A DNA stretch of 32,000 nt. Source: Acaryochloris marina S15 (GTDB lineage: Bacteria; Cyanobacteriota; Cyanobacteriia; Thermosynechococcales; Thermosynechococcaceae). The DNA lies in contig NZ_CP064923.1 in assembly GCF_018336915.1 (NCBI RefSeq), positions 2,640,001 through 2,672,000 of the forward strand, in the 5' to 3' direction. The translations under genes and the position numbers were made by a program. Under the pieces are notes generated by a model. That model had not been told where the DNA came from and ran no database searches. It was given only the letters and a program-made list of their open reading frames with translations. Shown here one piece after another: positions 5,864-30,986 of the stretch (within the stretch, counting starts at the first letter, position 1; every line of letters starts with the position of its first letter).

Positions 5864-6088
5864 ATGACAACTGAAAAAAAACTTAAAAACTCTTTCCTAG
5901 CAAAAATCTTTATACAGAAGCATAATTTTCGGTCTGATAATTTGAATAGACCTCTTAATTATTTTAATAAAGTTGAATCCAGTTATTTAAGTAATAAATC
6001 CAACTCTATTAATAATAAAAATCTAGATATTTCTTGGCTAGAGATTGATTTTGATAATACTGACTTAGAAGAAGGAGGCCGAATTTAG
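5864..6088 (+). CDS. Hypothetical Asn/Lys-rich 74-aa ORF in AT-rich DNA
   Basis: The only ORF of 60 aa or more in the roughly 1.1-kb AT-rich stretch. Its composition looks driven by AT bias, and the SD (agga) is weak. It may not be a gene. Confidence 0.2.
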   Translation: MTTEKKLKNSFLAKIFIQKHNFRSDNLNRPLNYFNKVESSYLSNKSNSINNKNLDISWLEIDFDNTDLEEGGRI

Positions 6089-7050: not shown

Positions 7051-8196
7051 TACCAAATCCGACTTATTAACCCCTGAAATATCTCATCGGTCAAACTGGC
7101 CACCAATGGTAGTAAGTGAGAGCTTTAATGTCTGATTGCATGGTCATTAAAGTTCGACAGCGCTCCTCGAGCACATCTTCGAGAGCATCGAGGGTCTCAA
7201 AGCATCGATTGGCGATTGGTTCATCCGCTAGCCGCCACAATCGTTCAGCGGGCTGTAGTTCTGGAGAATAGGGAGGTAAAACCTTCAGATGAATGCCTTT
7301 AGGTACCACCAGATTTTTACAGGTATGCCATCCTGCACCATCTAGAACGAGAAGAATCTGTTTGTGCTGTCCCGCTCCAACTTGCTGAGCAAAGCTTTGC
7401 AGGGCTTGATTAAACCATTCTCCATTCACCCGAGGCAGAATGAACCATTCAGTGTCGCCTGTTGCGGGGTGAACGAATCCATAAAGATAGGCCCATTCGT
7501 AGCGATGGTCCACCTCAGCAATCGGACGCTGACCTACAGGTGCCCAGATCTTTCGAATGATGGGTTTAAGGCCTAAGCGGTGTTCATCAAAAGACCACAC
7601 TTCGACTTGAGCATCAGGATAGCGTCGCTCCAATTCTGCTTTGCACTCAGGCAGTTTTTTTAAAGGCGGCTTGTGCCTCTGGGTCGCCTTTACGATGATG
7701 AGGACGTGGGCATTGAAGGGACTGCTCCAATCGCTTGAGATAGTCCCAACCTCGTTGGGGCCAAACCTTCTCAACTCCTGTCATTTGGGCGATGACCTGT
7801 GCTACTTTTGGCCCGTTCCATAGACCACCGTCGGCAGGTGGGGTTTGGAGACGAGTCGACAATTGTGCACATTGGTCTTGAGTCAGGAGACTGCGAGATT
7901 GGTAAGGTCGTTTATCTTTGCGTCGGTTGCGTAATCCATTAGCTCCATTGCGGTTATACTCTCTAACAATTTCTCGGGCGTAATCGTAGTTGAGACCGAC
8001 CACTTGGGCTGCTTGAGTTAGCTTTGTTTGCTCACTGACGAGCCACAGCAGATGCCAGCGGCGCGATTCTACTGGGTCTTGGCTGGCCCGATAATGAGAC
8101 TTCAGCTCCTCAGGCGAAAAATGAGGTTCGAGATACAGTTTTCTTGGCATTCTCTAATTATGAATTATATCGGAGTTATATAAATCGGATTTGGTA
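7051..8196 (-). mobile_element. IS630/Tc1-mariner-family insertion sequence (about 1.14 kb) inserted at a TA within the TnpB-like gene
   Basis: Terminal inverted repeats: TACCAAATCCGACTTAT (7051 onward) against the reverse complement of the right end, TACCAAATCCGATTTAT (16 of 17 match). The ends are TA...TA, and a flanking TTA occurs on both sides (7048..7050 and 8197..8199), so the duplication is either TA or TTA. Confidence 0.85.
7091..8150 (-). CDS. IS630-family DDE transposase, split into two frames at an A7 run
   Basis: The N-terminal frame (7647..8150) is HTH-rich and ends ...DPEAQAAFKKTA-stop. The C-terminal frame (7091..7774) reads ...LKKLPECKAELERR... with FDEHRLGL, LVLDGAGWH and PPYSPELQPAERLW (D, D, E). 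The two frames join at the run 7655..7661. Confidence 0.85.
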
Positions 8197-9465
8197 TTAG
8201 ATCCGAACAGACCCGAAATTAGACGACCTCGATATAAAGGCAAGTGTGACCGGGTAAACACCATTCCCTGTGAATCTTTCCGCGCCCAAGCCAAAATTGA
8301 TTTTGCTACAGATCGGTTGCAGCTCCCTGGCCTAGGTTGGATCGGTATTCCTGCCCTCTCTGTTCGATTGGGGAGTGTCATGATTAGACAGCAAGTGCAG
8401 ATGGCAAAGTATCCCGACCGCTACCCAGAACTAGCCAAAAAGCTGAATGAGCGGGATGCATTTTTGAGTGTGGCTAGATGGCTGGAGAGGGATATTCCAA
8501 TGCCAGAGAAGATAACGGGAGATATCAAAAAAGCTATCAATCATGCTGAATGCGTTATCAAGAAATCGGGCCAGGTCACACAGGCCATTGCAAAATTGAG
8601 AGAATTGTCAGAGAAGCGAGAATTACAACAGGCGATTAATGACCTTTGTACTCCTGGAGTCTTTAGGATTTGTCGACGCGGGGATAAATTCTATCTCCAA
8701 ATCGCGGTCCGCTCAGTAGTGAATCCTGGTAATCCTCGGCCCAAACCAATAGGTTTGGATGTAGGTTTAGATCTACTATGCTGCACGACCAATGGCGTGC
8801 AGACTAAGCATCCTGATTTGAGGCGATTGACTAGCAAAATTATTCGCCTCAAGCAGAAACAATCGCAGATGATGTTAGGTTCTGCAAACTGGCACCGTAT
8901 TCAAAAAAAGATTAGTAACGCGGAACGACAGAAAACTAAAGCCAAGCGCAACAAACAGCACTATATTGCAGGCTGGTTAGTGGACACTAATCAGCATATA
9001 GCGATCAAGAAAGTCAATCCAAAAGAGGTTGTCGCACGACCCTTGCCGCGACCGAGTGAAGACAACGAGCAATATCTACGTAATGGTAGAGAAGATCAGC
9101 GTATCATCAACTATCAGTCGAAGGAAGCCTCAGTTGGTCAGTTTATCAGCTTAATTCTTTCGAAAGCCAGTGACAGAGAAAATCGCATGATAGAATTGGT
9201 AGCATGTGAGCCTGAAGCCACACCGACTAAAATTTTGGAAGCGTCCAGTTTCCACTCCGGCGGTCCACAGTCGGAGCCAGCCCAAAACCTGCAAAGGACA
9301 CGGGAAGGTGATGCGGTAACGCTCACCATGCGAGGGGAAAGCAACAGCGACTCCTCAACAACTCATAGATCGAAGCAAGCCCATGAGCTTGCCAATCCAG
9401 CTAAAAGCCCCAAACCTTTCAAACGTCCACGGCGTAAGCCATGGGCTGAACGTAAGACCTTTTAG
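8197..9465 (+). pseudogene. C-terminal part (422 codons) of the TnpB/Cas12-like gene; RuvC-I is retained, while RuvC-II, the zinc finger and RuvC-III are lost
   Basis: DPNRPEIRRPRYKGK matches the P-R/K-F-K-x-K motif. Also present are LQLPGLGWIG, FRICRRGDKFYLQIAV, PIGLDVGLD (Asp codon 8758..8760) and GSANWHRIQKKISNAERQKTKAKRNKQHY. IAIKKV replaces I-x-I-E-D-L (Lys at 9007..9009). There is no Cys-containing zinc ribbon. QSEPAQNL (9268..9291) replaces D-x-N-A-A-x-N-I. Confidence 0.75.
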
Positions 9466-9523
9466 GTTTTTCAAATACTGACAGATTGGTTGTGGCTGAA
9501 GTTTGCGCCTTAGCAATTTATCC

Positions 9524-9556
9524 AATGCTTTCTACATGACAAAAGCATTTTGTTTA
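9524..9556 (+). terminator. Candidate intrinsic terminator downstream of the TnpB-like ORF
   Basis: AATGCTTT (9524..9531), a 10-nt loop, then AAAGCATT (9542..9549), followed by TTGTTTAT. The 8-bp stem is AT-rich, so this is only moderate support. Confidence 0.3.
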
Positions 9557-9708
9557 TGGGGTTATTCTTCCTTTTTACTTTCAAAAATACTGTGGAGACT
9601 AAGTTTTTGAAGACTGGGTGATTTAGGGCATTAGATCTAAAGTGTTGGTGGACATTGGGCCTACAGTTATCTGTTCTCAAAGCTCAACTTTACCCATCAA
9701 GCATCATA

Positions 9709-10122
9709 GCAAGCGTAAATATTACACATTTTAGCAATATTTCATGTTACTATATTTTCTTTGAGAGTAATGGTGAGAGATGGACTACGAATTTAGAGTA
9801 ATAGTCGAGAAAGTCTCCGTCACCAGCCAGGAAGTAGTCAAGCGAGACACTCAAAAAATATATGACATCCAACAACCCGAATCAATTCTCGATCTAGGAT
9901 TGCGTCATGAAGAGCAAATCTCTCTACTTTCCAAAGTCCAAAGTGCTCTGTTAGCCGAGCAATCAACCCTTATCGATCCTGGATTCAAGCAGTGTATCAA
10001 ATGCGGAGAGAAAATAGGCAAACTGGGTTTTCAAGCATCTACATTTCATGCCGTCTTCAGCGATCATAAACTCCGAATCCAAAAACATCGGTGCAAGATC
10101 CCTGAGTATTGTTGGCAAAGTA
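9709..10122 (+). mobile_element. 5' fragment of an ISKra4-like element (copy 1), truncated after about 113 codons
   Basis: The terminal repeat GCAAGCGTAAATATTACACATT at 9709..9730 matches the ends of the intact copy at 18988..20454. ORF 9780..10130 (MDYEFRVIVEKVSVTSQEVVKRDT...HRCKIPE) closely matches the first 110 or so residues of the 450-aa transposase. Nucleotide identity is roughly 85% by eye. Homology stops at ...tggcaaagtat (10122). Confidence 0.8.
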
Positions 10123-10268
10123 TCAACTGATTTCGGGTTTTAATCCATGGGTAAGATTATCTAAAACCCTTTTTCTGCATAGCATTCCACCGACACAAAC
10201 TAAAATGACGCCAGCCATTTAGTTTACCGTTCGTTAGGAGTGCAAATGCCTCAAACTAAGTCCCATAA

Positions 10269-11108
10269 ATGGATTCCAACCTACTTTTTGCAGGTACGAT
10301 AAACTTCGAAAAAAAGCTTAAAAGTAGCTTTATTCACATTAATTGTTGCTTGCGCATCAGTGCGAATGTCTCCTACGCTCAAGCTGCTAAAGATGTGACT
10401 TATTTAACGGGTATTCAGGTTGCAGCCAAAACCCAGCAACGCTTGGTCCATCAGCAACGGTTTCCTACGCCCCAGGCCCACGAAGCTTTAACTGAAGTGA
10501 GTGTCGATGGTGGCAAAGTACGCATCCGCACACCTGCAGGCCAACCTTGTCAGTGGAAAGACTATAAAACCTTAGCAACAGACGTGGGACTCATTGCGGA
10601 TTATCACAATAATGCCCGGCTCATTGGCTGGACTCACCAGCAACCGTTAGCCTCTCCAGTGACTTGCTTAGGGGATGGTCATGATGGCATTTGGAACATC
10701 ATTCGTCAGCTGAGCATACCTGAGCAACGACGGGAGATTCTGGACTGGTACCATCTGGTGGAAAATCTTCATAAGGTCGGTGGATCTCTCAAGCGTCTGC
10801 ACCAGGCTGAACAACTCTTATGGCAGGGGAAGGTGGATGAAACCTTGACTCTGTTTGAATCGTTGAAGAAAAAGCAAGCCCAAGTCTTTTGCAACTATAT
10901 CCGCAAACATCGGCATCGGATCGTCAATTATGACTATTACCAGAGTGAGCAAATTTGTTCTATTGGGTCTGGAGCTGTTGAATCTGCTATCAAACAGATT
11001 AGTCGCAGAGTCAAAATTTCAGGGGCGCAGTGGAATGAAAGCAATGTCCCGCAAGTGCTTGGACACCGATGTGCTTATCTCAATGGTTTAATTTGCATGC
11101 AAAGGTGA
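10269..11108 (+). CDS. ISKra4-family-like transposase of a second subgroup; probably N-terminally truncated, as no left end was found
   Basis: 279 aa with LGDGHDGIWN, LDWYHLVENL, LWQGKVDE and IGSGAVESAIKQISRRVKISGAQWNESNVPQVLGHRCAYLNG. These parallel LADGASNCW, LDWFHIGKKF, LWHGKVDD and SQVAESHID...MQWT in the 450-aa protein. The stop lies inside the terminal repeat at 11098..11117. A stop codon lies immediately upstream of the ATG, and no matching left repeat is nearby. Confidence 0.7.
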   Translation: MDSNLLFAGTINFEKKLKSSFIHINCCLRISANVSYAQAAKDVTYLTGIQVAAKTQQRLVHQQRFPTPQAHEALTEVSVDGGKVRIRTPAGQPCQWKDYKTLATDVGLIADYHNNARLIGWTHQQPLASPVTCLGDGHDGIWNIIRQLSIPEQRREILDWYHLVENLHKVGGSLKRLHQAEQLLWQGKVDETLTLFESLKKKQAQVFCNYIRKHRHRIVNYDYYQSEQICSIGSGAVESAIKQISRRVKISGAQWNESNVPQVLGHRCAYLNGLICMQR

Positions 11109-11117
11109 CATGCTCCC
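11098..11117. repeat. Right terminal repeat of the second ISKra4-like element
   Basis: TGCAAAGGTGACATGCTCCC is identical to the MITE terminus at 6305..6324 and is the reverse complement of 6204..6223. GC content drops abruptly immediately to its right. Confidence 0.8.
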
Positions 11118-12291
11118 GGACCTCTAGTTATGTATGGTAATTATTTTTTCAATACATAATATTACTTTATAAACAATGGATAGATACTAATATTACTTTT
11201 ACATAACAAAAAAAATGACTTTTAAATAGACTTTCTAGTAGTTTTTTAAAAACAGGTGATAATTAGTGACTTTAAACAGACTATTACTAAAATTAAATAT
11301 ATATATAAATATTAACAGTCTGGACAATAATATTTTTTAGAATATAATTAATTATCGGTTCCATTAATCTATAGCAGCTTATCTTCAAATCATGAATGCC
11401 TACAAATAATAGTCAGCATAGAAGATTTTACTTTTGTTTCAGTAATTCAATATGATTAACTATTATAATCTACATTTTCGTCTGAATTAAATTACTATTA
11501 ATAAGTTAAGTCAGAAAGCGTATATATCACACTCCTATTGGCATTAAGCTCCTTTATAAATTCTTTAATCTCATCTTTAATTATTTTTGTAATGGTATAA
11601 AATTTGGAATATGAGTACTGCGTTAGGTAAGATACTCAAAAAGTTCGTCAACAGTGCAAAGTAGAGTTTATGACATGGCAAGTCAGATTATCTTTTGAAA
11701 AGATGCTCATATATTGGTATTACATATCAAATAATGGAAGTAATCAAAGCTCAAAGCCTTTGACGTTAAAGAATAATTTGTGGTTCGATAATAATGTGAG
11801 CTAATAGAAAAGAGATGCACTTCACCAATGTATTTGCAAAAAAAAATATATAAAAACTATCATTAATGCTTGCAGCAAAATAAAAAAAACCTGTTTTTTT
11901 TTCGCAGTAAAGCTTACATCATTTTGTTAAACTAGGGCTGCTATAATCATTAATAAAAAAACAATGATGCTTATGAAAAAGTCATAAAGTTGACTTAAAT
12001 TATCTAAACAATGTAGGCTTTTCTGTTTTTCAAAAACTATAACTTATTAAACTAAACATTATTTTATTTATAAAATCAGCTTATATCAGTTTAGAAATAT
12101 TTTTTAACCCATTGTAAATTTAAGTGTTATGCCAATAAAATCACCTCTGAAATAAAAGGAGAAAAAAATTGTAGTTGTGAGAATCTCAAAGCATAAATTT
12201 TAACCTATCTTTTATGCAATTTTAGTAGCGATAACTCTTCCTAAGATAACCGATTAGTTTGAATAATTATTTTGTATGGCCTGGAGCAATT

Positions 12292-12879
12292 ATGTCAAAT
12301 TCAGTCAAAACTGAGTATTTTGAGTTTATGAGAACCGATCTTCAACAAACATTTTCTTCCAGTCATATAGAACCAAGCAAATTAAGTACATTTCAGCGAA
12401 TACTATTAACAACTGATGGAACAGTAACTGATATTCTTGAAGCTTATGCTTTTGAGCAAATTCAGATTGTAAAACTTTCAGAGAGTCTGTTTATACTGGA
12501 AGACGATATTAACTCTATGAAACTAAAAAAGGGATCTGAAGTAATCGCAAGAAAGATTTTGTTACAGGGGAAAATAAGCCGAAAAAACTTTGTTTACGCA
12601 GAATCAATTATTGCTCCAGAAAATCTAAATATTCGGTTTAGAGAAGCCCTTCTTAAAACTAAATCACCTATCGGAAAACTGTGGTTTGAACAACGCGTTG
12701 AAACATTTAAGGAAATAGTTAATACAAGTATTGAGTCTGCTACGAATCTATCAAAATATTTCAACATAGGAATTTCTGATAAACTTTTCTCAAGAACATA
12801 TCAAGTTTTTACAGATAATAAACCGGTTATGATGATTACGGAGAAGTTCCCAGAGTCTTATTTTACAGACTTATTTTGA
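12292..12879 (+). CDS. Chorismate pyruvate-lyase family (DUF98/UbiC-like fold) protein
   Basis: FQRILLTTDGTVTDILEAY, ...ARKILLQG..S...FVYAESII, SPIGKLW and PVMMITEKFPESYF fit the pattern I recall for DUF98 chorismate lyases such as mycobacterial Rv2949c. I prefer ATG 12292 (ggag 6 nt upstream) to the track's TTG at 12259. Confidence 0.65.
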   Translation: MSNSVKTEYFEFMRTDLQQTFSSSHIEPSKLSTFQRILLTTDGTVTDILEAYAFEQIQIVKLSESLFILEDDINSMKLKKGSEVIARKILLQGKISRKNFVYAESIIAPENLNIRFREALLKTKSPIGKLWFEQRVETFKEIVNTSIESATNLSKYFNIGISDKLFSRTYQVFTDNKPVMMITEKFPESYFTDLF

Positions 12880-13318
12880 TAAATTAGTATTCTCAGAGTC
12901 AAGAACTGAATTAGTATTTTGGTAAAGATATAAGTGGTCATATTAATCAGCCTATTTTGAATATTAAATGCTAAATGCAATATTGTAAAAACCAACTACT
13001 AATAAAAATTTCCTAAATTATTTTTTTCGTTCTTTATTAGCGATTACATAACTAATAGTTTTGCCTTAGAGAAAATATTTAATTTGTGAATGCTTCAACT
13101 CATATATATTTACTTTAATTTTGGATCTTTATTTTAAAGAATTAGTTATATATATCAACCTTTTTAATTAATGCTTAACCCAAAATTCCTAGAAATCTAT
13201 TAAGTATATATAAATAGAATAAGTAAAATATGCTGGACATCGTATTACGGTTAAATAAAAGGTTTATTTTTTAGAAAATGCAAAGATTTAACGTTTTCAA
13301 ATTTAGATAAGAGGAATA

Positions 13319-14851
13319 ATGCTTTATAACATCTTAAAAGAAGTAGCTATAAAAAACCCAAATGAAATAGCAATTATATACGGTGAAACAAAGATAACTT
13401 ACAATACCCTACTAGAAAAAATAAGCGGCTTAAGTGAAGGATTGAAGTCTATAGGGCTTAAAAAGGGAGATTGCTTAGCACTATTACTACCCAACTGCCC
13501 TGAATTCATTTTTACATTTTATGCTGCTATGACACTTGGAGCTATTATTTTACCCCTCAATCACTTGTTCAAAGCAGAGGAAGTAGAATTTTATCTGCAA
13601 GATAGTCATGCGAAATACATCATTACAGATAGTCATCGGTTTCAATCTTGTATACAGCTAATTTCTAATCTATCTAACTCAGTTGAAGTCATAGTAATAG
13701 ATTCTACTCGGACAAGTAGTCAATCTTTCTCTGATTTAATTAAATCGAATATTTTGGATACTAGACCTATACATATTGATCCTAACTCTAGTGCTATTTA
13801 TCAGTATTCATCAGGTTCGACTGGACGTCCCAAACGAGTTACCCGGACTCAATCGAATCTAGTCAGCGAAGTAAGAAGTTTCGGGGCAACCACTAATATA
13901 ACCCCTACTGATAAAATCCTCTGTATCGTCCCACTCTATCATGCTCATGGATTAGGGAACTGCCTGCTCGCTTCAACCTGTAATGGTGCGACACTAGTAA
14001 TTTTAGAGCCACTTATGAAGAATGATCTTCCAGTTGAAGTTCCATTTGTGTTTAGATGTCCAAGAGTTCTTGAACTAATAGAAAGTAAGAAAATTACAGT
14101 TTTACCTGCTGTTCCTTATATTTTTAGCACAATGGTTGAGACACCTGTATGTACCAATGCCAACCTTAACTCTTTAAGGCTTTGTTTTTCAGCTGGAAAC
14201 TTTCTTGACCAAAAAACTTTTGATCATTTTTTAAATAGATATGGTGTTCCTATTAGACAGCTTTATGGTTGCACAGAAGCTGGTTCAATTTCAATTAATT
14301 TAAGTACTGAGGTTGCACAGACTGCTAAGTCAGTAGGACAATCACTACTCGGCGTTCAAGTTTCCATTATTGACGATAACGGTAAAATTTTACCAAATGG
14401 TGAAATCGGGGAAATAATTGTTAAGAGCCAAGCTTTGACGAAAGGCTATGACAAAATGCCTGAATTAACTTCATTCGCTTTTCAAGATGGAGCTTACTAT
14501 ACAGGAGATCTAGGATTTTTAGATCAAAATAGATATTTATATATTACTGGCCGAAAAAAAATCTTAATTGATACAGGGGGACGGAAAGTAGATCCCATTG
14601 AGATTGAAGATGTCCTATTAACTAATCCTAAAATTAAAGAGGCTGTTGTAGTAGGTGTTAAAAGTAATCTTGCAGGAGAGTTGATTAAAGCAGTTGTGGT
14701 ATTAAAAAATGGTATTTATTACAGCGAAAAAGAAATTCAAATTTTTTGTAGAAAATATTTAGCTGACTATAAATCACCGAAGATGATTGAGATTCGCGAC
14801 GAAATCCCTAAGAGCCCTCTTGGAAAAGTTTTAAGGAAGGAGTTAATATAG
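13319..14851 (+). CDS. Stand-alone adenylate-forming enzyme (acyl/aryl-AMP ligase, ANL superfamily)
   Basis: Core motifs are present: YSSGSTGRPKRV (A3), YGCTEAG (A5), YYTGDLG (A7), GRKKILIDTGGRKVDPIEIE (A8) and PKSPLGKVLRKEL (A10). SD gagga precedes the ATG. Confidence 0.9.
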   Translation: MLYNILKEVAIKNPNEIAIIYGETKITYNTLLEKISGLSEGLKSIGLKKGDCLALLLPNCPEFIFTFYAAMTLGAIILPLNHLFKAEEVEFYLQDSHAKYIITDSHRFQSCIQLISNLSNSVEVIVIDSTRTSSQSFSDLIKSNILDTRPIHIDPNSSAIYQYSSGSTGRPKRVTRTQSNLVSEVRSFGATTNITPTDKILCIVPLYHAHGLGNCLLASTCNGATLVILEPLMKNDLPVEVPFVFRCPRVLELIESKKITVLPAVPYIFSTMVETPVCTNANLNSLRLCFSAGNFLDQKTFDHFLNRYGVPIRQLYGCTEAGSISINLSTEVAQTAKSVGQSLLGVQVSIIDDNGKILPNGEIGEIIVKSQALTKGYDKMPELTSFAFQDGAYYTGDLGFLDQNRYLYITGRKKILIDTGGRKVDPIEIEDVLLTNPKIKEAVVVGVKSNLAGELIKAVVVLKNGIYYSEKEIQIFCRKYLADYKSPKMIEIRDEIPKSPLGKVLRKELI

Positions 14852-14920
14852 CGAATTATTAATCGATTAATATCAAAAGAGCTAATATTGTTTATAAAAA
14901 ATTATTTGTGGATCACTAAA

Positions 14921-15169
14921 ATGACATATTCACCTGAAAAATTAACTGAAAAAATTAAAAGTGTGATTCTTGACCTTATACCTATCGATGAAGATAAATT
15001 GTTGGATAACTCAGATATCTTTAATTTAGGTTTAGACTCAATTAACGCTATGACACTAGTTTTTAATTTACAAGATACATTCTCAATAAAATTTGAAGTT
15101 CTTGAAATTGATGTTGAAAATTTCAGGAGTGTCAAGGATATATCCAAGCTTATAAGAAGCAAACTCTAA
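14921..15169 (+). CDS. Stand-alone acyl/peptidyl carrier protein
   Basis: LGLDSINAMTLVFNLQDTF carries the (L)GxDS phosphopantetheine-attachment serine. The protein is about 83 aa from ATG 14921; the track's TTG start at 14888 is less likely. Confidence 0.8.
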   Translation: MTYSPEKLTEKIKSVILDLIPIDEDKLLDNSDIFNLGLDSINAMTLVFNLQDTFSIKFEVLEIDVENFRSVKDISKLIRSKL

Positions 15170-15191
15170 TGACTTATTTTTTATTCTGAGA

Positions 15192-16046
15192 TTATTCTTC
15201 AAGGTGATTGGAAAAAAAAATTTCTACCATATTTAATATGCCCGGAGATGAGAATTTTTTACCATGTCCTCCACCATGAATAACTTCAAAAGTAACTTCA
15301 TTACCAGCTTGACTTAATGATTCATATAAGATTTGACTTTGATTTAAAGGAACAAGTAGATCATTATCTGCGTGCATAATAAGAAATGGCGGGACTGACG
15401 AGGTGATATGAGTGATTGGATTAGCTAAAGCGACTTTATCTACGGCTGATTGAATAGGATATCCAATTAACTCCGATTCGGGAGAGTCATAAGCATCATG
15501 ATCAATTTCACTAGGGTAACTATTCATTCTTAAAAAATCTGTCGGACCAAACCAATCACAAACAGCTTGAACTTTACTTGAAGATGATCTCCATGGTCCC
15601 GACTTATCGAATTCTTTCATATGCTGAGTTGTACCTAGGAGTGCTGCTAGATGCCCTCCTGATGAAGAACCCCAGACACCAATTTTCCTTGGATTCAAAT
15701 TTAACTCATTTGCGTTAGCTCGAAGAAACCGAACTGCACATTTGCAGTCTTCAAGCTGGGCTGGAAAGGGTGCTTCAAAGCTCAATCGATAATTAATACT
15801 TACGCAAAAGTAGCCACGTAGAGCAAAAGGGATAATTTTTTTCTTACCATCCTTCTTAGTACCTGATCGCCATCCACCTCCATGGATCCAAATTATTACA
15901 GGCATTGGCATTTTTGAGGGACAAATGAGATACATCATATCCATTGTTAGCGAACAAGTATTTGTTCTGCAATATTCAATGTCTTGTCGGTAAATTAGTT
16001 GTTTTCTTAGTCGTATGATGGATTCGAAAATTTGCAATTTATTCAA
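15192..16046 (-). CDS. Alpha/beta-hydrolase (esterase/lipase, HGGG-type)
   Basis: VIIWIHGGGW supplies the oxyanion HGGG. GVWGSSSGGHLAA is the GxSxG nucleophile elbow. HADNDLLVP and GGGHG supply candidate Asp and His. It is convergent with the carrier-protein gene. Confidence 0.85.
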   Translation of the reverse strand: MNKLQIFESIIRLRKQLIYRQDIEYCRTNTCSLTMDMMYLICPSKMPMPVIIWIHGGGWRSGTKKDGKKKIIPFALRGYFCVSINYRLSFEAPFPAQLEDCKCAVRFLRANANELNLNPRKIGVWGSSSGGHLAALLGTTQHMKEFDKSGPWRSSSSKVQAVCDWFGPTDFLRMNSYPSEIDHDAYDSPESELIGYPIQSAVDKVALANPITHITSSVPPFLIMHADNDLLVPLNQSQILYESLSQAGNEVTFEVIHGGGHGKKFSSPGILNMVEIFFSNHLEE

Positions 16047-16147
16047 TATCAGAAGAAGTTAACTCATTAAATTTATATTTCTATGAGCAAGCTGCAGGCA
16101 ATAGATTCTTATTTAGTGTTCGGTATATCTGGTATTTCTAAAGATAA

Positions 16148-18802
16148 GTGGGTACATTTTATACTATGAATACAAGCTTTAACTCCGACTCGTCGATATC
16201 AAAACTAGAACCTCTAGAGAAGAAAAAACAATCTAGTGAGACGAATTTGTGGACATCTATCCGTAATATTATTGCACTACAGAATCAAGCGCCTGAACTT
16301 AAAAAGCTATCAAGTGGCCTTACTGCACCAACCTCTTTTAATCAAGAGAGACTTTTGCTTTTAGATAAGCTTAGGCCAAATAGTATTGTTTATAATATAC
16401 CATTCGCATTTCGCATTTTTGGAGACCTTGATATATCTACCTTAGAGAAGTCTATACAAGTCCCAATTTATCGACATGAGGTTTTGCGAACTACTCTACT
16501 TCAGGATGATTATGGTGTCACTATTCAACATATTCATCCAATGCCTGAAAATACGCTATCTATTCAAGATCTACATATGCTCAATGAACTTGAACAAGAT
16601 ATGTTGATTGATAATTTTGTAAGGGAAGTTGTAGAGACTCCCTTCAATCTTGATAAAGGCCCACTAATTCGAGCAAATCTTCTCAAAGTCTCATCTCAAG
16701 ATTTTATTTTAGTTCTAACGATCCATCACGCTATATTTGATGGTTGGTCTGAAGGCATTTTGTTTGATGAAATATCCAAAGCTTATAAGACTTACTATGC
16801 TAGAGAAGATTTACAGCTGGATAGAATTCCGATTCAATATTCTGATTACTCCATTTGGCAACGCCAGTGGATAACAGGTGATTTTCATCAGGTCCTTACT
16901 AACTATTGGAAGACTACTTTAGATGAGTCTTTGAGAAGATTAGACTTACCGGTTGATATCTCAGCAATTAAAGCTAACCAATCTCAACGTAGTGCTTGCG
17001 AGAAGTTGTATCTAAATTCACAAATCACAAATTCTTTAAAAGAACTATCTTGCCAACAAAAAACAACTCTTTTTTGTGTACTTTTATCTGCTTTTTATGT
17101 TCTTTTATATCACTATACTGGGCAATCGGATCTTGCTGTTTGTACACCCACAGCGAGTCGTAATCGAAGTGAATTAAAGGGAATGATTGGTTACTTTGTT
17201 AACCTATTAGTGCTACGCAATGATTTATCTTACAAGCCATCATTCAGGCAATTAATTGAACGTGCTAAACAGGTTATATCTGGTGCAATAGCTCACCAAG
17301 ATTTGCCCGCGCAGGACTTGCTAAATTGTATTGCGGGAGATCAGATGGTAATGTCCCAGGTTTTGTTTGTGCTACAGAATACTCCACAGAAATCACTCTT
17401 ATTGCCAGATCTTGAGGTTCAGCGATTTGAAGTTGATAATGGTATAGCCGATTTTGATTTGTTTCTTTCTTTGATGGATGATGCAGGATCAATTAAGGGG
17501 ATACTTAAGTACAATGCAGATCTTTTTGAAGCTAATTCAGTACTTAAAATGCTTCAACACTATAAAGAGATTCTATCAAAAGCGATTGTAAATCCTGATA
17601 GTTCTATCGACAACTTATTGAAGCTATCAGTTTATGAAAAACGAGAACTTACTGCTAAACGTCATCAGGAAAAGCGTCTATCATCAGTTAAAACTCAGGA
17701 GAAAGTCCAGTTTGTTACACCTCGTAATGAGACGGAGAGAAAACTGCAAAATATTTGGCAGATAGCCTTAAATATTCAGCCTATTAGTATAACTGATAAT
17801 TTCTTTGATTTAGGAGGAAAGTCTCTTGCAGCAGTTAAACTTTTTAGTCAGATTGAAAAAACCTTTGGTAAGAAGCTACTGTTCAGTGATATTTTTAAAT
17901 CTCCCACAATCGAGAAACTGGCTATAAAACTTAAAGAGGAAGAAACTATAGGCTATAAGAAATCGCTTGTGGCAATTAATTGTGAAGGGTCCAAACCCCC
18001 ACTTTTTTGTATTCACTCAGTTGAGCCAAGTATTTTACACTATCGCTATATTTCTAACTATTTAGATACCGATCAACCGTTTTATGCTCTTCAGCCTCCT
18101 GCATTGTGTTCCAGTGATGAGATCCTGTTTGCTTCTATTGAAGAGATGGCGCTTTACTATGCTAATGAAATTCAAAAGTTTCAACCTCAAGGCCCTTACT
18201 TTCTTACCGGACATTCAATGGGAGGAGTGATTGCTTACGAGGTTGCTTGTAAGCTCCAAGGAAAAGGGGAAGAAGTTGCCTTCCTCGGTCTTATTGACAG
18301 CTTTGCACCTCAGTACCATAAGCATGATACATCTAGCACCAAAATCTTCTATCAGCTTTTTATCCATTGTCGCAATATAATACGAGTCTCCCCTAAACGG
18401 AAGATAGGGTACATTATAGAGCGGTTGAAATACGTGATTCCAAACTCTATATGGAGTATACTAAATAAACAATCAATATTTGAGATAATTGACATATCAG
18501 TCCACAATGAGTTAACTGATATATACCAAAATCTTCCTATTTATAAGAAAATTAAGCAGGCACATTATAAGGCTTATAAAAAATATATCCCAACTCATTT
18601 ATACTCTGGTAGCATATTTTTATATCGTGCCACTGAGCGACCTACTACGATTCGTTATTATTCAGCCCTAGGCTGGGAAAAATATCTCTCTGAGAACATA
18701 GAAATTATAGAAGTTCCTGGAAATCATAATGCAATAGTTCATGAACCTTATGTCAAAGTTTTGGCTAGAAAAATTCAGAAATCTATTGATAAACAGCTGT
18801 AA
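16148..18802 (+). CDS. NRPS-like condensation / thiolation / thioesterase (C-T-TE) protein without an adenylation domain
   Basis: C domain: SFNQERLLLLDKL (C1) and IHHAIFDGWS (HHxxxDG). T domain: FFDLGGKSLAAVKL. TE domain: PLFCIHS, GHSMGG, LIDSF and VPGNHNAIV. No A-domain core motifs occur between C and T. The start is either GTG 16148 or ATG 16166. Confidence 0.9.
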   Translation: MGTFYTMNTSFNSDSSISKLEPLEKKKQSSETNLWTSIRNIIALQNQAPELKKLSSGLTAPTSFNQERLLLLDKLRPNSIVYNIPFAFRIFGDLDISTLEKSIQVPIYRHEVLRTTLLQDDYGVTIQHIHPMPENTLSIQDLHMLNELEQDMLIDNFVREVVETPFNLDKGPLIRANLLKVSSQDFILVLTIHHAIFDGWSEGILFDEISKAYKTYYAREDLQLDRIPIQYSDYSIWQRQWITGDFHQVLTNYWKTTLDESLRRLDLPVDISAIKANQSQRSACEKLYLNSQITNSLKELSCQQKTTLFCVLLSAFYVLLYHYTGQSDLAVCTPTASRNRSELKGMIGYFVNLLVLRNDLSYKPSFRQLIERAKQVISGAIAHQDLPAQDLLNCIAGDQMVMSQVLFVLQNTPQKSLLLPDLEVQRFEVDNGIADFDLFLSLMDDAGSIKGILKYNADLFEANSVLKMLQHYKEILSKAIVNPDSSIDNLLKLSVYEKRELTAKRHQEKRLSSVKTQEKVQFVTPRNETERKLQNIWQIALNIQPISITDNFFDLGGKSLAAVKLFSQIEKTFGKKLLFSDIFKSPTIEKLAIKLKEEETIGYKKSLVAINCEGSKPPLFCIHSVEPSILHYRYISNYLDTDQPFYALQPPALCSSDEILFASIEEMALYYANEIQKFQPQGPYFLTGHSMGGVIAYEVACKLQGKGEEVAFLGLIDSFAPQYHKHDTSSTKIFYQLFIHCRNIIRVSPKRKIGYIIERLKYVIPNSIWSILNKQSIFEIIDISVHNELTDIYQNLPIYKKIKQAHYKAYKKYIPTHLYSGSIFLYRATERPTTIRYYSALGWEKYLSENIEIIEVPGNHNAIVHEPYVKVLARKIQKSIDKQL

Positions 18803-18820
18803 GCGTAAAAATCACACATT
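18797..18820. repeat. Solo terminal repeat of the ISKra4-like element, overlapping the C-T-TE stop codon
   Basis: CTGTAAGCGTAAAAATCACACATT compares with CTGTAAGCGTAAATATCCTACATT at 18986..19009. The TAA stop (18800..18802) is part of the repeat. Confidence 0.65.
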
Positions 18821-18987
18821 CAACTGGTTTCGGGTTTTTATCTAGCTGACCTAAAATATTGGCTGTTAACCCCAATATGAACACCTGAAAAAGATTGAAC
18901 AGGTAATTGCATCGCCTCACTTTGAGAATTCACCTTATAGTTCCCAACTGATTTCGGGTGTCGGGTAGAGAGGACTCCTTCGAAACT

Positions 18988-20454
18988 GTAAGCGTAAATA
19001 TCCTACATTAAAAGCCTAATTCTCAAGCAGCTTTTTCTTCTTCAGGAAGAACTAAATCTAGCCAATTATCACTCCATTCATTACTGATCATACTCGCCCT
19101 GATTTGCAAGACATTATGGGCACCTACCCGAGTCCATTGCATCTTCTGCTTCTTTTTATGGCGAGCATTAATGAGGGTGTCAATATGAGATTCTGCAACT
19201 TGACTGGTATAAGCTAGCCCCGCTTTATCTCGCTCGTCATAATTGACAAGATATTCACTGTTATTCTTTAAGTAATCGTATAAGCCTTTGAGCTTTGTTT
19301 GCTTCTTCTCATCTGAAATGTTGTCTCGAAGCATGGCAATCTTCTGCAGAGCATCATCTACTTTTCCATGCCATAAACTCCCCTTCGCACTATCGAGGGA
19401 TTCTGCAAAGGTTTCACCCAGTGCATTGCTGACATTTCGGAATTTCTTGCCGATATGAAACCAGTCCAAGATCAGCTCTAATGCTTTGCAATGAGGCTCA
19501 AGAACTGAGATGACTGACCAGCAGTTGCTAGCACCATCGGCCAAGGCAGTGACCTGTGTCTCTTCTGTCATCCCTTGTTTAAGTGCCGCATGATGCAGAT
19601 AGGTCTTGATGGTTTGCAACTCATCCTCTAAGGCGGAAACAACACAAGTCTTTTCCGTAATTTGGCGATGATGTTTATCAACTACTTCAATGGCACTAGG
19701 ACGATAAACGATGCCAGATAAGGCTTCAAAACTGCGCTTGTCTTTATCTTTGGTAGGAATATGACCCCCATCGACTTGAGCAATGAGTTCTGCTGCCGGG
19801 GTGGGTAACTCTTCTTGATCTGGAGGGGTAGTGTTCGCTTGAGATAAACGCTCACCGACTTGATTGGTCACGTTTTTGATTTGGACATGGTTATTCACAC
19901 TCCGGCGCTGAGCATTCAGCCGCTCCATATTATCCTGAGCTTCTCGATAGCTATGCAAGGCACCATTCTCACATTGCAGTTTTACTAAGTCAGGATGAGT
20001 ATCTGTGCCAAAGACGCTCAACACCGATGGCATACTTTGCCATCGACACTCAGGATTCTTGCACCGATGTTTTTGGATACGGAGTTTATGATCGCTGAAG
20101 ACGGCATGGAATGTAGATGGTTGAAAACCAAGCTTGCCTATTTTCCCACCACATTTGATGCACTGCGTAACTCCAGTATCGATGAGGGTAGATTGTTCGG
20201 ATAACAGAGCACTTTGGACTTTGGAAAGCAGAGAGATTTGTTCTTCGTGACGCAATCCTAGATCTAGAATAGATTCTGGTTGCTTGATGTCATAGATTTT
20301 TAGAGTGTCTCGTTTAACGACTTCCTGAGTGGTAACCGAAACTTTCTCCACAATCACTCTAAATTCGTAGTCCATCTCTCACCGTTACTCTCGAACCTCT
20401 GCAAGAGATAGAGTAACACTAAAAACTTGAATAATGTACAAAAATTACGCTTTC
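18988..20454 (-). mobile_element. ISKra4-like insertion sequence, apparently intact (copy 2, about 1.47 kb)
   Basis: Imperfect terminal inverted repeats: GTAAGCGTAAATATCCTACATTA (18988 onward) against the reverse complement of the right end, GAAAGCGTAATTTTTGTACATTA (ending 20454). It holds a single 450-aa ORF. I could not identify a clear target duplication. Confidence 0.75.
19023..20375 (-). CDS. ISKra4-family-like transposase (450 aa)
   Basis: An N-terminal Cys cluster (CIKCGGKIG...HRCKNPECRW) is followed by LADGASNCW, LDWFHIGKKF, LWHGKVDDAL and YTSQVAESHIDTLINARHKKKQKMQWTRVGAHNVLQIR. The family call is from memory and needs an ISfinder check. Confidence 0.8.
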   Translation of the reverse strand: MDYEFRVIVEKVSVTTQEVVKRDTLKIYDIKQPESILDLGLRHEEQISLLSKVQSALLSEQSTLIDTGVTQCIKCGGKIGKLGFQPSTFHAVFSDHKLRIQKHRCKNPECRWQSMPSVLSVFGTDTHPDLVKLQCENGALHSYREAQDNMERLNAQRRSVNNHVQIKNVTNQVGERLSQANTTPPDQEELPTPAAELIAQVDGGHIPTKDKDKRSFEALSGIVYRPSAIEVVDKHHRQITEKTCVVSALEDELQTIKTYLHHAALKQGMTEETQVTALADGASNCWSVISVLEPHCKALELILDWFHIGKKFRNVSNALGETFAESLDSAKGSLWHGKVDDALQKIAMLRDNISDEKKQTKLKGLYDYLKNNSEYLVNYDERDKAGLAYTSQVAESHIDTLINARHKKKQKMQWTRVGAHNVLQIRASMISNEWSDNWLDLVLPEEEKAA

Positions 20455-20577
20455 AATGGAGGGTGCTTTGGTACGGAAGGAATTGTCGGAGGAGTTCCAT
20501 AACCTTACCTGGTAAGGGTTGATCTCTCTATTCTCTAACTCTTATTTCAGCATCACCAAAAGAGGACAAGAGCCTTA

Positions 20578-21708
20578 TTACGACATCATTTGTCTTAACT
20601 TACTTACTATTTTTTTGGGCGAGACAAGGGCTGATAATTTATAGGCAATTTGACCACGACATAACCCTAAAGAAAATAGCGTTTCAGTTCGCTGTAAATA
20701 CTTCAACATCTTAGAAGACCGGGATGAAGGTTCTAGATTAGTAGTATTCTCCTGAGTCATATTAGGAGAAATTTGCATCCAAATCTCTGGAGAACTTGAC
20801 CAAGGAGAAGAAGATTTTGATGAACTCCCAAATTCCATATTCTCAACAGAAAATCCTGCTCTATTTGCGATTCGATACAATCCGTCAACAGAAAAGTTGT
20901 ATTTATGGGCAATGTGTAAATACATCAACAAATTACCAAGGGCAGGCAAATGCCCAAACTGATCAATACGACTGATATCAGGCACAATCAAAACGATCTT
21001 CCCATTGGGGGTGAGATACTGACGGATGTCTTGCAAGAACTGGAGCGGTTGATCAAGATGCTCAAAGACATGGTGTAGGTAGATTAAATCAAACTTTGCA
21101 TCTTTCTGTTCGGCGGGAAGGGCACTCAGATCGCCATAGTAGAGGTGTTTCACACCAAAGCGACGGCCAGCTTGTAATGCTGCAACATCATAATCACAGC
21201 CGATTGCATCATATCCCCGTTCCTGCATAAACTTGACGCTACCGCCCCCTCCGCAACCCACTTCACAAAGTCGACTTGCTGGTGTTAAGGAGTCGCTAAT
21301 GAATTGGAGTAGCTTCTCAGAGTAACTGCTTTGGCTAGCAATATAATCTCCATAATCTTCCGAGTCATCAACATCCATCGCATACATTTTTCGATACATG
21401 TTGGTATAGAAGTCAGCTAGGCTCTCTTCATCCAAATAGGGATCAAATCTTACCGTTCCACATCGATTACATACAACAGATGTTAGTGGAATCCCATATC
21501 TATCAATTTCGGAAACAATCACATCTTCTGAGTCATTAGCTTCGCAAGGACAGGCAGAATGCTGCAGTGTATAGGAATTATTGTCGATATTTAATTTTAT
21601 TTTATCTATGAAATTTTGCTGAGTCTTAGACACAGAAGGTTGATATGGGTTAAGGGAATCAAACTCATATCGAGGAGAAATAATTTGTCTTTCTAAAGTT
21701 GCATTCAT
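20578..21708 (-). CDS. Class I SAM-dependent methyltransferase with an N-terminal Cys4 zinc-ribbon-like region
   Basis: LCEVGCGGGGSVKFM is the SAM motif I (ExGxGxG). FDLIYLHHVFEHL and PNGKIVLIVPD are post-I motifs. CPCE...CNRCG lies upstream. Confidence 0.8.
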   Translation of the reverse strand: MNATLERQIISPRYEFDSLNPYQPSVSKTQQNFIDKIKLNIDNNSYTLQHSACPCEANDSEDVIVSEIDRYGIPLTSVVCNRCGTVRFDPYLDEESLADFYTNMYRKMYAMDVDDSEDYGDYIASQSSYSEKLLQFISDSLTPASRLCEVGCGGGGSVKFMQERGYDAIGCDYDVAALQAGRRFGVKHLYYGDLSALPAEQKDAKFDLIYLHHVFEHLDQPLQFLQDIRQYLTPNGKIVLIVPDISRIDQFGHLPALGNLLMYLHIAHKYNFSVDGLYRIANRAGFSVENMEFGSSSKSSSPWSSSPEIWMQISPNMTQENTTNLEPSSRSSKMLKYLQRTETLFSLGLCRGQIAYKLSALVSPKKIVSKLRQMMS

Positions 21709-21878
21709 AATCCAATACTTGATGAATAAGCCAGAGCGTTAGAATAAATACTAGTCGGCTAAAAATAACAACGAAGTAATCTAAGTCACAATAAATATCT
21801 GATCGTTCAAATAAAAAAATACATATATTTGAAATAATATGAATGCAGAGTTACTTTATTTTCTGAGGCGAATTACTG

Positions 21879-22817
21879 CTATAGCTCTTCGGATAAACGA
21901 TTGACAATATGATTCGCCCGAAGCAAAGAGCCAGATTGGTTTAGATGGTATTCACTATCAAAAAAATATTTCACCTGAAATGCCATTTCTTCAGGAGTAT
22001 CGATAAAATCAAGTTCAGAAGTGTTCTCAATCACTGAACTAATTTGATCAATAGCCTTAGCATTATTTTTATATACATTTTCAGCTAGGGGCGGATAAGA
22101 AAAATATACTCGTGCACCATTTTCTTTTGCCACTCGATCAAATTTTTGGATAATTTTTAAAGAAGTTTGGATTGATCCATCAGTGACTTCCAAAGTACGC
22201 TTAATTTTAGAAATATCTCGCGGAGTTCCAGTATTTTCTGTCATATCCCCAGCTTGGTTAAAATTACTCCGTTTATATATGCTATTTAGTTCATAATTCT
22301 TGGTAAGAGTAGAAACAACATTTCGAATAACTCCTCCAAAATAAAGCTGTCCTTTATCTAACAGCACAGGTGCATAGTAGTAGGGAACAAACTTTACGTT
22401 TTGAACTCGATTATCAATCGTGTTAAACAGACGTTCTGGAATATCAGGTAAATGACTAGAGAAATTTTCATATTCCAATGAAACGACAGCAACATCACCC
22501 GGCCTCAATGCCTCCTCAACTTCATTGAGGGTATACTCAAGACCCAGTGCAGCATGAAGTCCCATATTGACGGGCCTACGCTGGAGATTACTGGCGATAA
22601 GCTGGGAATTTATCCCAAATGCAACGTTAGAGCCACCAACAAAAATAATTCTTGGCTTTTTTTGCTGCTTGAGAAGAGCATGCTTGTCGATGGTTGCCGC
22701 TAAATACTGTTTTTGAGCCAACTGATCGTGAGTCTGAATGTAGTAGAGCGTAATGGCAGCTAGCACAAGACATTGCAGAGAAGCAAACTTAAACAGTCTA
22801 ATCAAAAACTTATTCAT
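21879..22817 (-). CDS. Hypothetical membrane-anchored or exported protein
   Basis: The N-terminal hydrophobic segment FKFASLQCLVLAAITLYYI suggests a membrane anchor or signal. PRIIFVGGSNVAFGI faintly recalls block I of SGNH/DltD-like proteins, but I cannot support a family call. Confidence 0.55.
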   Translation of the reverse strand: MNKFLIRLFKFASLQCLVLAAITLYYIQTHDQLAQKQYLAATIDKHALLKQQKKPRIIFVGGSNVAFGINSQLIASNLQRRPVNMGLHAALGLEYTLNEVEEALRPGDVAVVSLEYENFSSHLPDIPERLFNTIDNRVQNVKFVPYYYAPVLLDKGQLYFGGVIRNVVSTLTKNYELNSIYKRSNFNQAGDMTENTGTPRDISKIKRTLEVTDGSIQTSLKIIQKFDRVAKENGARVYFSYPPLAENVYKNNAKAIDQISSVIENTSELDFIDTPEEMAFQVKYFFDSEYHLNQSGSLLRANHIVNRLSEEL

Positions 22818-30486: not shown

Positions 30487-30986
30487 AATCAGACTCAACT
30501 TAGTAGGTAGCCCTAAAAACTCTCTCTTAAAAGTAATTTCAATCCACTGAGTTGAATTTTGTGGAAGCCTTAGTGTAACTTATATTGCTGATGGGTGATG
30601 TGATTTAAATCCCAAGCTAAATTGATAGGAAAAAATTGGGTTAATTAAAGATTAAGTATTGATGTCACCCTAAAAAAAAGAAATCTTATTCTAGTTGAAG
30701 ATTACTTTTATATAAAGTTCCAAGTTAAAAAGAATGCGATTCTGAGCAAAGCATCATTAAAACAAATGGGAAAGTAGCCTTAGAGGATATTTGAATAAAC
30801 CTTGGTCCTCAAGGCTTATTCTGGAGCCTTGCCGACGTTGAACTGCAGGTAGGAGGAATTCAAGGCGTTTTCCTTGCTCTAAGGGTAACTCGGGTATGAC
30901 TTACCTATTAATCTTTAAGGCGATCGTGTAGCGATAACAGCCTACTCGCCGAGGGCTTATGGAAGCCTCGAATTCTCAAATATCCT

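Follow-up and report, generated by a model that had tools for sequence, protein, structure and literature searches.

We analyzed computationally a 32,000-nucleotide stretch of the Acaryochloris marina S15 genome (contig NZ_CP064923.1, positions 2,640,001 to 2,672,000; hereafter the window, numbered from its first base), in which an AT-rich island at positions 11118 to 18802 carries five genes between insertion sequences (ISs). These encode, in order, a DUF98 protein of the chorismate pyruvate-lyase family, a free-standing adenylate-forming (ANL) ligase, a free-standing acyl/aryl carrier protein (ACP), an esterase-type hydrolase on the opposite strand, and a protein made up of a condensation (C), a thiolation or carrier (T), and a thioesterase (TE) domain, here called the C-T-TE protein (Table 1). 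An earlier note on this DNA, made from the letters alone, had listed the same five genes, and each of them proved to be correctly placed, to carry the domains it had been given, and to be intact: measured against their homologues, all five open reading frames (ORFs) have their full length, and each catalytic motif that was checked is preserved. Domain content, motif conservation, synteny, and foreign composition were observed directly; our preferred reading of them, which we hold to be reasonably probable, is that the cassette makes 4-hydroxybenzoate (4-HBA) from chorismate, tethers it to a carrier, and releases it.

The DUF98 protein, read from an ATG (an in-frame TTG lies further upstream, at 12259), scores above cut-off for two Pfam families, PF01947 (Rv2949c-like, 67.4 bits) and PF04345 (Chor_lyase, 25.8 bits with a cut-off of 23.6). 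Its sole sequence relative among solved structures is 2NWI, itself a DUF98 protein, and its AlphaFold model, of moderate confidence (predicted local distance difference test score, pLDDT, of 74.5), matches 2NWI, UTRA domains, and UbiC from Escherichia coli. Two residues that are invariant in the subfamily stand out: R87, which is aligned with R76 of UbiC, and Glu184, in the motif TEKF, which is aligned with E155; the comparison of the DUF98-subfamily profile with that of UbiC is weak (E = 0.05) and served solely to place the glutamate of the TE.F motif. By Pfam family, by fold, and by this aligned arginine and glutamate, the protein groups with the chorismate lyases, as the earlier note had proposed. 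Its identity to UbiC is about 20%, and it reaches 40 bits against NF037993, the family of the cyanobacterial plastoquinone chorismate lyase, for which the cut-off is 175. Copies linked to related cassettes are 53 to 74% identical to it (six loci compared directly, four of the six with all four core genes), and the subfamily as a whole counts 737 relatives at an E value of 1e-5 or lower. On these alignments, the S15 protein is a member of a subfamily that is separate from the housekeeping cyanobacterial lyase and linked to secondary-metabolism genes.

The DUF98 subfamily also has a second conserved context, without the ANL-ACP-C-T-TE genes, in L113, L114, L116, L121, L128, L142, L153, L157, L158, L164, and L165 (L numbers denote the loci returned by our searches). 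Judged from sequence features, the neighbors there are sulfotransferase-like and HemN-like radical S-adenosylmethionine (SAM) proteins, a small ACP, a thiamine diphosphate-dependent enzyme, an aminotransferase, and a P-type ATPase, and this context appears to be an uncharacterized cluster type.

Every NCBIfam match of the ligase falls under its cut-off. The best relatives of the ligase among solved structures are oxalyl-CoA ligase and 4CL (E values of 1e-67 to 1e-70) and FadD13, and its best 60 solved-structure matches include no fatty acyl-AMP ligase (FAAL). In the C-T-TE protein, the condensation domain spans residues 60 to 501 or thereabouts, the carrier domain residues 532 to 592, and the thioesterase domain residues 617 to 884; there is no AMP-binding, that is, adenylation (A), domain. 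All 32 family members compared keep the HHxxxDG motif (H193, H194, and D198) and the carrier serine (Ser559); at position 690, the thioesterase nucleophile is serine in 24 of them and cysteine in the other 8. The condensation domain is similar to ordinary C domains of nonribosomal peptide synthetases (NRPSs; AB3403, TycC, and Txo) and also to the C domain of PvdL that follows an acyl-starter unit. Members of the family are about 860 to 930 amino acids (aa) long and, where named, cyanobacterial. The S15 protein, whose closest relatives share 53% and 50% identity with it, groups in a neighbor-joining tree with the proteins of L002 and L003, apart from the clade whose members are accompanied by halogenases. 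A profile search of genome contigs with the alignment of this family was discarded: its patterns (HHxxFDGW and others) are generic to NRPSs, and nearly all of the 80 loci kept were ordinary NRPS loci. Only L005, L006, L007, L009, L017, and L084 are full length among these 80, none of which contains a DUF98 gene.

The genes of the cassette travel together. A search of metagenome contigs with the DUF98-subfamily alignment returned 80 loci, 9 of which have a full or partial C-T-TE gene beside DUF98, while in 6 more, on short contigs, a ligase gene follows DUF98 directly. The earlier note had allowed that the genes might co-occur in no other genome and that the ligase might have nothing to do with the carrier protein; clearly, neither is the case, since the cassette is present in at least 16 loci, cyanobacterial wherever the organism is named, with ligase, ACP, and C-T-TE conserved together with DUF98. 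The order DUF98-ANL-(DAHP synthase)-ACP-C-T-TE is seen in L002, L003, L004 (Gloeocapsopsis dulcis), L085, L091, L102, L117, L130, L135, L151, L169, and L170, whose DUF98-adjoining ligases are 50 to 60% identical to that of S15. ACPs at the same position in related loci are 43 to 70% identical (the gene call of L001 gives an identical 82-aa product), and the C-T-TE proteins of related loci are 38 to 53% identical. L106 has the same cassette genes in a different order, L131 breaks off where the C-T-TE gene begins, and the cassettes of L086, L126, and L133 are missing the ligase. In at least 10 loci, a DAHP synthase gene lies between ligase and ACP or adjoins DUF98, and this linkage indicates a shikimate-derived substrate independently of the DUF98 annotation.

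Around this core, the relatives vary. In L091, L102, L135, and L151, which form one clade, the gene immediately after C-T-TE encodes a flavin halogenase (WxWxIP motif, Pfam Trp_halogenase), often with a flavin adenine dinucleotide (FAD) monooxygenase gene behind it, and in L117 (6631-15635) a halogenase and a P450 gene directly precede DUF98-ANL-DAHP synthase-ACP-C-T-TE. An O-methyltransferase gene is inserted between ACP and C-T-TE in L086, L126, and L133, followed by a phosphopantetheinyl transferase (PPTase) gene. L002, the closest relative, has a DAHP synthase gene within the cassette and a PPTase gene about 3 kb upstream, and L003 adds no further enzyme to the four core genes in the sequence present, its contig ending about 440 bp after C-T-TE; no tailoring enzyme was seen in either locus. 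L170 (4417-9902) has two tandem C-T-TE genes together with a PPTase and an A-T protein, and a roughly 1,760-aa A-KR-T-TE protein (KR, ketoreductase) is encoded nearby in L169 (1544-6820) and L171 (12548-17908), so that some esterase-bearing variants may build larger products. Finally, C-T-TE members stand beside glycosyltransferase, sulfotransferase, flippase, or pyruvyl-transferase genes in L085 (10650-20619), L087 (8041-17993), L004 (76-4383), and L171 (3531-12455), with L087 having C-T-TE without DUF98, ligase, or ACP genes; these glycan-gene neighbors may be there by chance or may hint at an aroyl group that ends on a glycan.

The esterase gene of S15 is divergent from the C-T-TE gene. Copies 56 to 59% identical to it sit between the ACP and C-T-TE genes, in the same orientation, in L085, L169, and L170, that is, in loci belonging to different C-T-TE clades. 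Going by this recurrent placement, the esterase gene belongs to one variant of the cassette as a conserved accessory and is not an incidental neighbor.

The closest known counterpart of the cassette is the ambigol pathway as reported, in which Ab5 is said to be a chorismate lyase of the DUF98 type, Ab6 a stand-alone adenylating enzyme, Ab7 a DAHP synthase, and Ab8 a stand-alone ACP. Ab9 is reported to be a C-T-TE protein without an A domain, in which the C domain takes the acid over onto the carrier of the same protein and the thioesterase sets it free, and Ab10 is said to be a flavin halogenase that chlorinates the Ab8-bound acid; Ab1 would be a second halogenase and Ab2 and Ab3 P450 coupling enzymes, by the same account. 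The cluster, ab1-ab10, is that of Symphyonema bifilamentata ("Fischerella ambigua 108b"), with a route from Ab5 to Ab10 leading to 3-chloro-4-hydroxybenzoate, that Duell et al. (2020) and Kresna et al. (2021) are said to describe. PMC10300848 and PMC13500791 confirm that these two papers on ambigol biosynthesis (doi 10.1039/D0QO00707B and 10.1039/D0OB02372H) exist under their titles and that shikimate-pathway enzymes are involved. With cblaster, no ab cluster was detected outside the one known producer (PMC8065813). In the literature on chorismate lyases together with condensation domains in cyanobacteria, we found nothing specific.

The window of S15 is spare by comparison. No halogenase, P450, or PPTase was matched among its scanned ORFs of at least 60 aa, where a 303-aa ORF (29587-30498) is without a Pfam match and some short or overlapping ORFs fall outside the scan. 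Likewise, no ketosynthase or acyltransferase domain was matched among the ORFs scanned, the window has no A domain besides the ligase, and it contains no DAHP synthase. The island itself, in agreement with the earlier note, has no amino-acid-activating A domain, PPTase, transporter, or regulator.

Composition sets the island apart from its surroundings. G+C amounts to 2,509 of its 7,685 bases (0.326), compared with 0.445 in the remainder of the window and 0.472 past position 23500, and in the composition profile sixteen successive 500-nt segments from 11001 to 19000 have a GC content of 0.26 to 0.39, the bulk of the remaining window lying at 0.42 to 0.52. The left border is abrupt, with GC dropping from 0.44 to 0.18 between 11050 and 11150, after the transposase stop codon at 11108, and the right border is gradual; the low-GC island with its sharp left edge, as described in the earlier note, stands. 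The note's spot counts came close: the 14 G+C of 60 at 13321..13380 are right, and the segment 26001..26060 has 33 of 60, where 34 had been given. The note had further read the absence of HIP1 (GCGATCGC) as a sign of foreign origin. HIP1 is indeed absent from the island, and the entire window has three sites, each beyond 25.5 kb; as the expectation for the island is itself about 0.95 sites, with a chance of about 0.39 of seeing none, this absence is no evidence by itself, and the argument is statistically empty. Foreign origin is supported on other grounds, namely, the foreign composition and the ISs on both sides. The cassette has a GC content of 0.34, compared with 0.445 to 0.47 for the host (window remainder), and in 11 of 12 related loci cassette GC lies within about 0.05 of that of the flanks (the exception being L002, with 0.40 and flanks of 0.49). 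Because the cassette matches its flanks in these relatives, low GC is not inherent to the genes, which argues for import of the S15 cassette from a lower-GC donor, and the island, in our view, most likely holds a conserved cyanobacterial cassette that is intact here and was acquired by horizontal transfer.

Table 1. Features of the S15 window, cassette genes first, and one metagenome locus used for comparison
Feature	Position	Strand	Basis or remark
DUF98/Rv2949c-like chorismate pyruvate-lyase family protein, 195 aa from ATG	12292-12879	+	PF01947 + PF04345
Free-standing ANL (adenylate-forming) ligase, 510 aa	13319-14851	+	AMP-binding + AMP-binding_C
Free-standing acyl/aryl carrier protein, 82 aa, GLDS phosphopantetheine site	14921-15169	+	PF00550, 42.6 bits
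BD-FAE/hormone-sensitive-lipase-type alpha/beta hydrolase (HGGG, GxSxG)	15192-16046	-	PF20434, 225 bits; Abhydrolase_3
C-T-TE protein, 884 aa	16148-18802	+	Pfam Condensation, PP-binding, Thioesterase
AT-rich spacer before cassette	11118..12291	.	1.17 kb, GC 0.25
AT-rich intergenic spacer	12880..13318	.	0.44 kb, GC 0.22, no ORF
ISKra4-type left end with N-terminal transposase fragment (ORF 9780-10130)	9705..10123	+	Cut off at 10123
C-terminal fragment (279 aa) of a second, different ISKra4-family transposase	10269..11108	+	NF033572, 244.8 bits
Solo ISKra4-type terminal repeat (repeat copy 18797-18823)	18797..18842	.	Repeat families D1 and D2, blastn, sequence inspection
Complete ISKra4-family insertion sequence, 450-aa transposase (19023-20375)	18986..20458	-	NF033572, 269.6 bits, full profile
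IS1 transposase	2408-3237		
DDE_Tnp_1 transposase	3659-4831		
IS630 type, DDE_3 and helix-turn-helix (HTH) ORFs	7091-8150	-	
TnpB-like OrfB_IS605	8191-9465		
376-aa SAM methyltransferase	20578-21708	-	Just past right IS copy
312-aa protein	21879-22817	-	Weak AlgX/SGNH-like match
Metagenome locus with ambigol-like layout	L091:5317-15323		

The ISs that the earlier note had placed at the borders are there, as ISKra4-family fragments on the left and a full copy on the right. The left end and the complete copy are inverted relative to each other and 84% identical over 427 nt (9705-10123 versus 20458-20032). The left copy has the terminal repeat AAGCGTAAATATTACACATT at 9711 and a weak match to the NCBIfam family transpos_ISKra4; the complete copy has terminal repeats AAGCGTAA...TACATTA at both ends. 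Between the left copy and the island lies the fragment of a second transposase, which covers positions 121 to 420 of the 422 in the NF033572 profile, has 28% protein identity to the right-hand copy, and ends with the stop codon that forms the left edge of the AT-rich island. On the right, the edge of the island is given by a solo terminal repeat that shares bases with the C-T-TE stop codon. This repeat is fused directly to a 23-nt sequence that is also found at 10123-10145 in the left copy, precisely where similarity to the right copy stops, and it resembles a recombination scar or the product of an internal deletion. Compared with the layout of a composite transposon, the right IS copy is complete, and the left one is cut off and followed by the fragment of a different ISKra4-family transposase; no target-site duplication was identified around the island. 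IS-mediated capture of the cassette is plausible from this arrangement, and the flanking ISKra4 elements probably helped it to arrive.

The two long AT-rich, ORF-free spacers pointed out in the earlier note are real, and neither holds an ORF with a Pfam match. The first, whose only ORF of at least 40 aa (11670-11804) is among those without a match, is presumed to be a promoter or regulatory region; the gap that corresponds to the second is only about 15 to 215 bp in related loci. Comparison with 812 ORFs from 85 related loci found no gene remnants in either spacer, be it of a halogenase, a DAHP synthase, a PPTase, or other neighbors. An Rfam scan of 9500-20500 gave no match at an E value of 1 or lower, and a scan for promoters and terminators gave counts no higher than in shuffled sequence, being uninformative in AT-rich DNA.

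Left of the island, transposase genes of at least five IS families are crowded between positions 2400 and 11108. Within this stretch, a second AT-rich patch (5001-6000, GC 0.26 to 0.28) is unrelated to the cassette, and its sole ORF of at least 60 aa (5864-6088) has no Pfam match. To the right of the island, the genes at 20578-22817 have a GC content of 0.38 to 0.40. The methyltransferase and the 312-aa protein encoded there were considered as cluster members and rejected, as no relatives of theirs are found beside any related cassette. Further on, a transaldolase gene (23568-24746, minus strand) encodes a C-terminal pair of EF-hand calcium-binding motifs.

Taken together, these observations suggest the following route. 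The DUF98 enzyme would convert chorismate into 4-HBA and pyruvate, given its family, its fold, the conserved arginine and glutamate, and the linkage to DAHP synthase. That the ligase then adenylates 4-HBA and forms the thioester on the free ACP we infer from genomic context and strict synteny alone and not from a specificity code; for the subfamily of ligases similar to 4CL and fatty acyl-CoA synthetases, we know of no validated pocket-residue code. The C domain, to go by the domain order, the invariant catalytic motifs, and Ab9 as reported, may take the aroyl group off the ACP and place it on the T domain of the same protein; the thioesterase would then release it, either through hydrolysis or by handing it to an acceptor. 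The halogenase or O-methyltransferase encoded close by in sister clades presumably acts on the ACP-bound intermediate. The PPTase for both carriers would have to come from the host. The logic of chorismate lyase, ligase, and carrier proposed in the earlier note is thus supported by family and fold, by synteny, and by the DAHP synthase linkage. Its statement that the route feeds a condensation domain needs amending: the statement implies that a bond is formed with a second substrate, and none is encoded. Because a conserved esterase is present and no halogenase or P450 was matched, the product should be a non-halogenated 4-hydroxybenzoyl compound, either the free acid or an ester made or trimmed by the esterase; with no halogenase, P450, or PPTase matched in the window and no DAHP synthase in it, the cassette would make neither chlorophenols nor an ambigol.

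Several observations weigh against this route. EntE, DhbE, and salicylate-AMP ligase match the S15 ligase at 1e-39 to 1e-40 only, and benzoate-CoA ligases are far lower as well; by these comparisons, the ligase does not resemble the known activators of aryl acids in any diagnostic way. A path from chorismate to 4-HBA, to the ACP, to the T domain, and back to 4-HBA looks futile unless a tailoring enzyme acts on the way, which suggests that the model misses something, be it a real condensation, an acceptor, or a partner whose gene lies elsewhere. Lastly, PPTase and DAHP synthase genes are not in the window, and an IS end abuts the C-T-TE stop codon, so that downstream partners may have been lost.

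A real condensation is at the heart of the alternative that survives best, although we consider it distinctly less probable than tethering and release. Here, the one ligase would load both the ACP and the T domain, and either the C domain or an iterating thioesterase would join 4-HBA units through the phenolic hydroxyl to give depsides or oligoesters, or the thioesterase would transfer the acid to a sugar, a glycan, or an alcohol, with the esterase trimming or recycling the products. Such chemistry would remove the futile-cycle problem of the halogenase-free variant, and the invariance of HHxxxDG in 32 family members argues for a catalytic C domain and not a scaffold. The conserved partner is of the feruloyl/acetyl-esterase type in four loci, L170 encodes an A-T protein besides a tandem pair of C-T-TE proteins, the A-KR-T-TE protein is encoded nearby in L169 and L171, and L085, L087, L004, and L171 lie among glycosyltransferase and polysaccharide genes. 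However, the window encodes no enzyme that would activate an acceptor, the C domain resembles the ordinary amide-forming type and not a known ester-forming one, and glycosyltransferase neighbors are common enough in cyanobacterial genomes to be there by chance. Ab9, the one characterized relative, is moreover reported to do no more than transfer and hydrolyze. The more specific proposal that the esterase-bearing, halogenase-free variant (S15, L085, L169, and L170) is a distinct, uncharacterized type, in which a C-T-TE protein lacking an A domain forms 4-hydroxybenzoate depsides or aroylated polysaccharides, we put forward still more tentatively; to our knowledge, neither such a product class nor such a role of a C-T-TE protein has been described for cyanobacteria.

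Somewhat less likely again is that the cassette, as a stranded piece of some larger cluster, was cut out and moved by ISKra4 and is now silent or without a useful product. The terminal repeat over the C-T-TE stop codon, the IS fragments at the left edge, and an adjoining 10 kb that amounts to a transposase graveyard would fit such a history, as would the unusually long and very AT-rich spacers and the genes that relatives have and S15 lacks, that is, PPTase (L002, L086, L169, and L170), DAHP synthase, and a second C-T-TE or an A-KR-T-TE gene downstream. Yet the five ORFs are full length with the checked catalytic motifs intact, the spacers hold no pseudogene remnants, and L003 likewise has the four core genes without an extra enzyme in the sequence present, up to its contig end about 440 bp past C-T-TE. 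As for mere chance adjacency of a generic fatty-acyl-CoA synthetase and an unrelated, UTRA-like ligand-binding DUF98 protein, it could appeal to the ligase's best NCBIfam names (long-chain-fatty-acid--CoA ligase subfamilies, all below cut-off), to a DUF98 fold common to effector domains of GntR regulators, and to the many subfamily members in contexts without a ligase, but it is very improbable and essentially excluded by the conserved synteny, the gene order being kept in at least 16 loci at 38 to 74% protein identity, with DAHP synthase linked to the cassette, the arginine and glutamate aligned with UbiC catalytic residues invariant, and no DNA-binding domain in the DUF98 protein.

If tethering and release of 4-HBA is what the cassette does, the ambigol type of logic, in which an aryl acid is made, tethered, passed to a C-T-TE protein lacking an A domain, and released, would not be a one-off. 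The cassette would rather be a widespread cyanobacterial platform with varied tailoring, by halogenase, P450, O-methyltransferase, esterase, or a second C-T-TE protein, and it offers a defined family for mining genomes for new phenolic metabolites, among which ambigol-like halogenated phenols may be included despite the negative search in PMC8065813. The halogenase-free variant poses a question of its own: why should 4-HBA be tethered and released if nothing modifies it? The S15 locus is, in addition, a clean case of a small biosynthetic cassette from a lower-GC donor that lies between insertion sequences.

Several known systems handle chorismate-derived aryl acids in ways that resemble this route in part. 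With UbiC and the NF037993 plastoquinone enzyme, the S15 DUF98 protein shares the fold and keeps the arginine and glutamate aligned with catalytic residues, but in sequence it is far from the former and below the family cut-off of the latter. The mycobacterial Rv2949c/FadD22/Pks15/1 route also starts with a PF01947 lyase that makes 4-HBA, with adenylation of the acid and its attachment to a carrier protein as the next steps. There, however, FadD22 is of the FAAL type with a fused ACP and feeds a polyketide synthase (PKS), whereas in S15 a free 510-aa ligase, similar to 4CL, oxalyl-CoA ligase, and FadD13, works with a separate ACP, the next enzyme is the NRPS-type C-T-TE protein, and no ketosynthase was matched; the parallel to FadD22 drawn in the earlier note is therefore one of function only. 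The aryl-capped NRPSs (EntE/EntB/EntF, DhbE/DhbB/DhbF, and VibE/VibB/VibH) likewise combine a chorismate-derived aryl acid, a free ligase, a free carrier, and a C domain, and EntF ends in T-TE. They differ in that EntF is a C-A-T-TE protein that joins the aryl acid to serine, whereas S15 has no A domain for an acceptor; in addition, the S15 ligase is not of the EntE/DhbE type (about 1e-39 versus 1e-70), and its acid would come from a lyase and not from the isochorismate route.

The Bmp pathway of marine bacteria follows a three-gene logic of the chorismate lyase Bmp6, the halogenase Bmp5, and the P450 Bmp7 (PMC10579414). As proposed for S15, a dedicated chorismate lyase provides 4-HBA for phenolic secondary metabolites; in contrast to S15, the acid is handled free, and Bmp is without a ligase, carrier protein, or C-T-TE protein.

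The nearest likeness is that to ambigol biosynthesis as reported. The ambigol cluster is said to have the same DUF98-type lyase, stand-alone ligase, stand-alone ACP, and C-T-TE protein lacking an A domain, in the same order, so that S15 would possess the lyase, the ligase with its ACP, and the C-T-TE protein of an ambigol-type tethering module (Ab5, Ab6, Ab8, and Ab9). Its relatives come closer still to the reported layout, with DAHP synthase between ligase and ACP and a halogenase after C-T-TE, where Ab10 is said to stand, or with halogenase and P450 genes before DUF98. What distinguishes S15 is, on one hand, a window without a matched halogenase, P450, or DAHP synthase and, on the other hand, the BD-FAE esterase between the ACP and C-T-TE genes. 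The earlier note had judged that the product could not be predicted from known cluster types; with the same domain set reported for ambigol, and with the halogenase and P450 genes required by such a pathway present in sister loci, this view no longer holds. We therefore propose no unprecedented cluster type for S15: to judge by gene content and order, its cassette would be a halogenase-free, esterase-bearing variant of a cassette for which the ambigol Ab5-Ab9 module is reportedly the characterized example.

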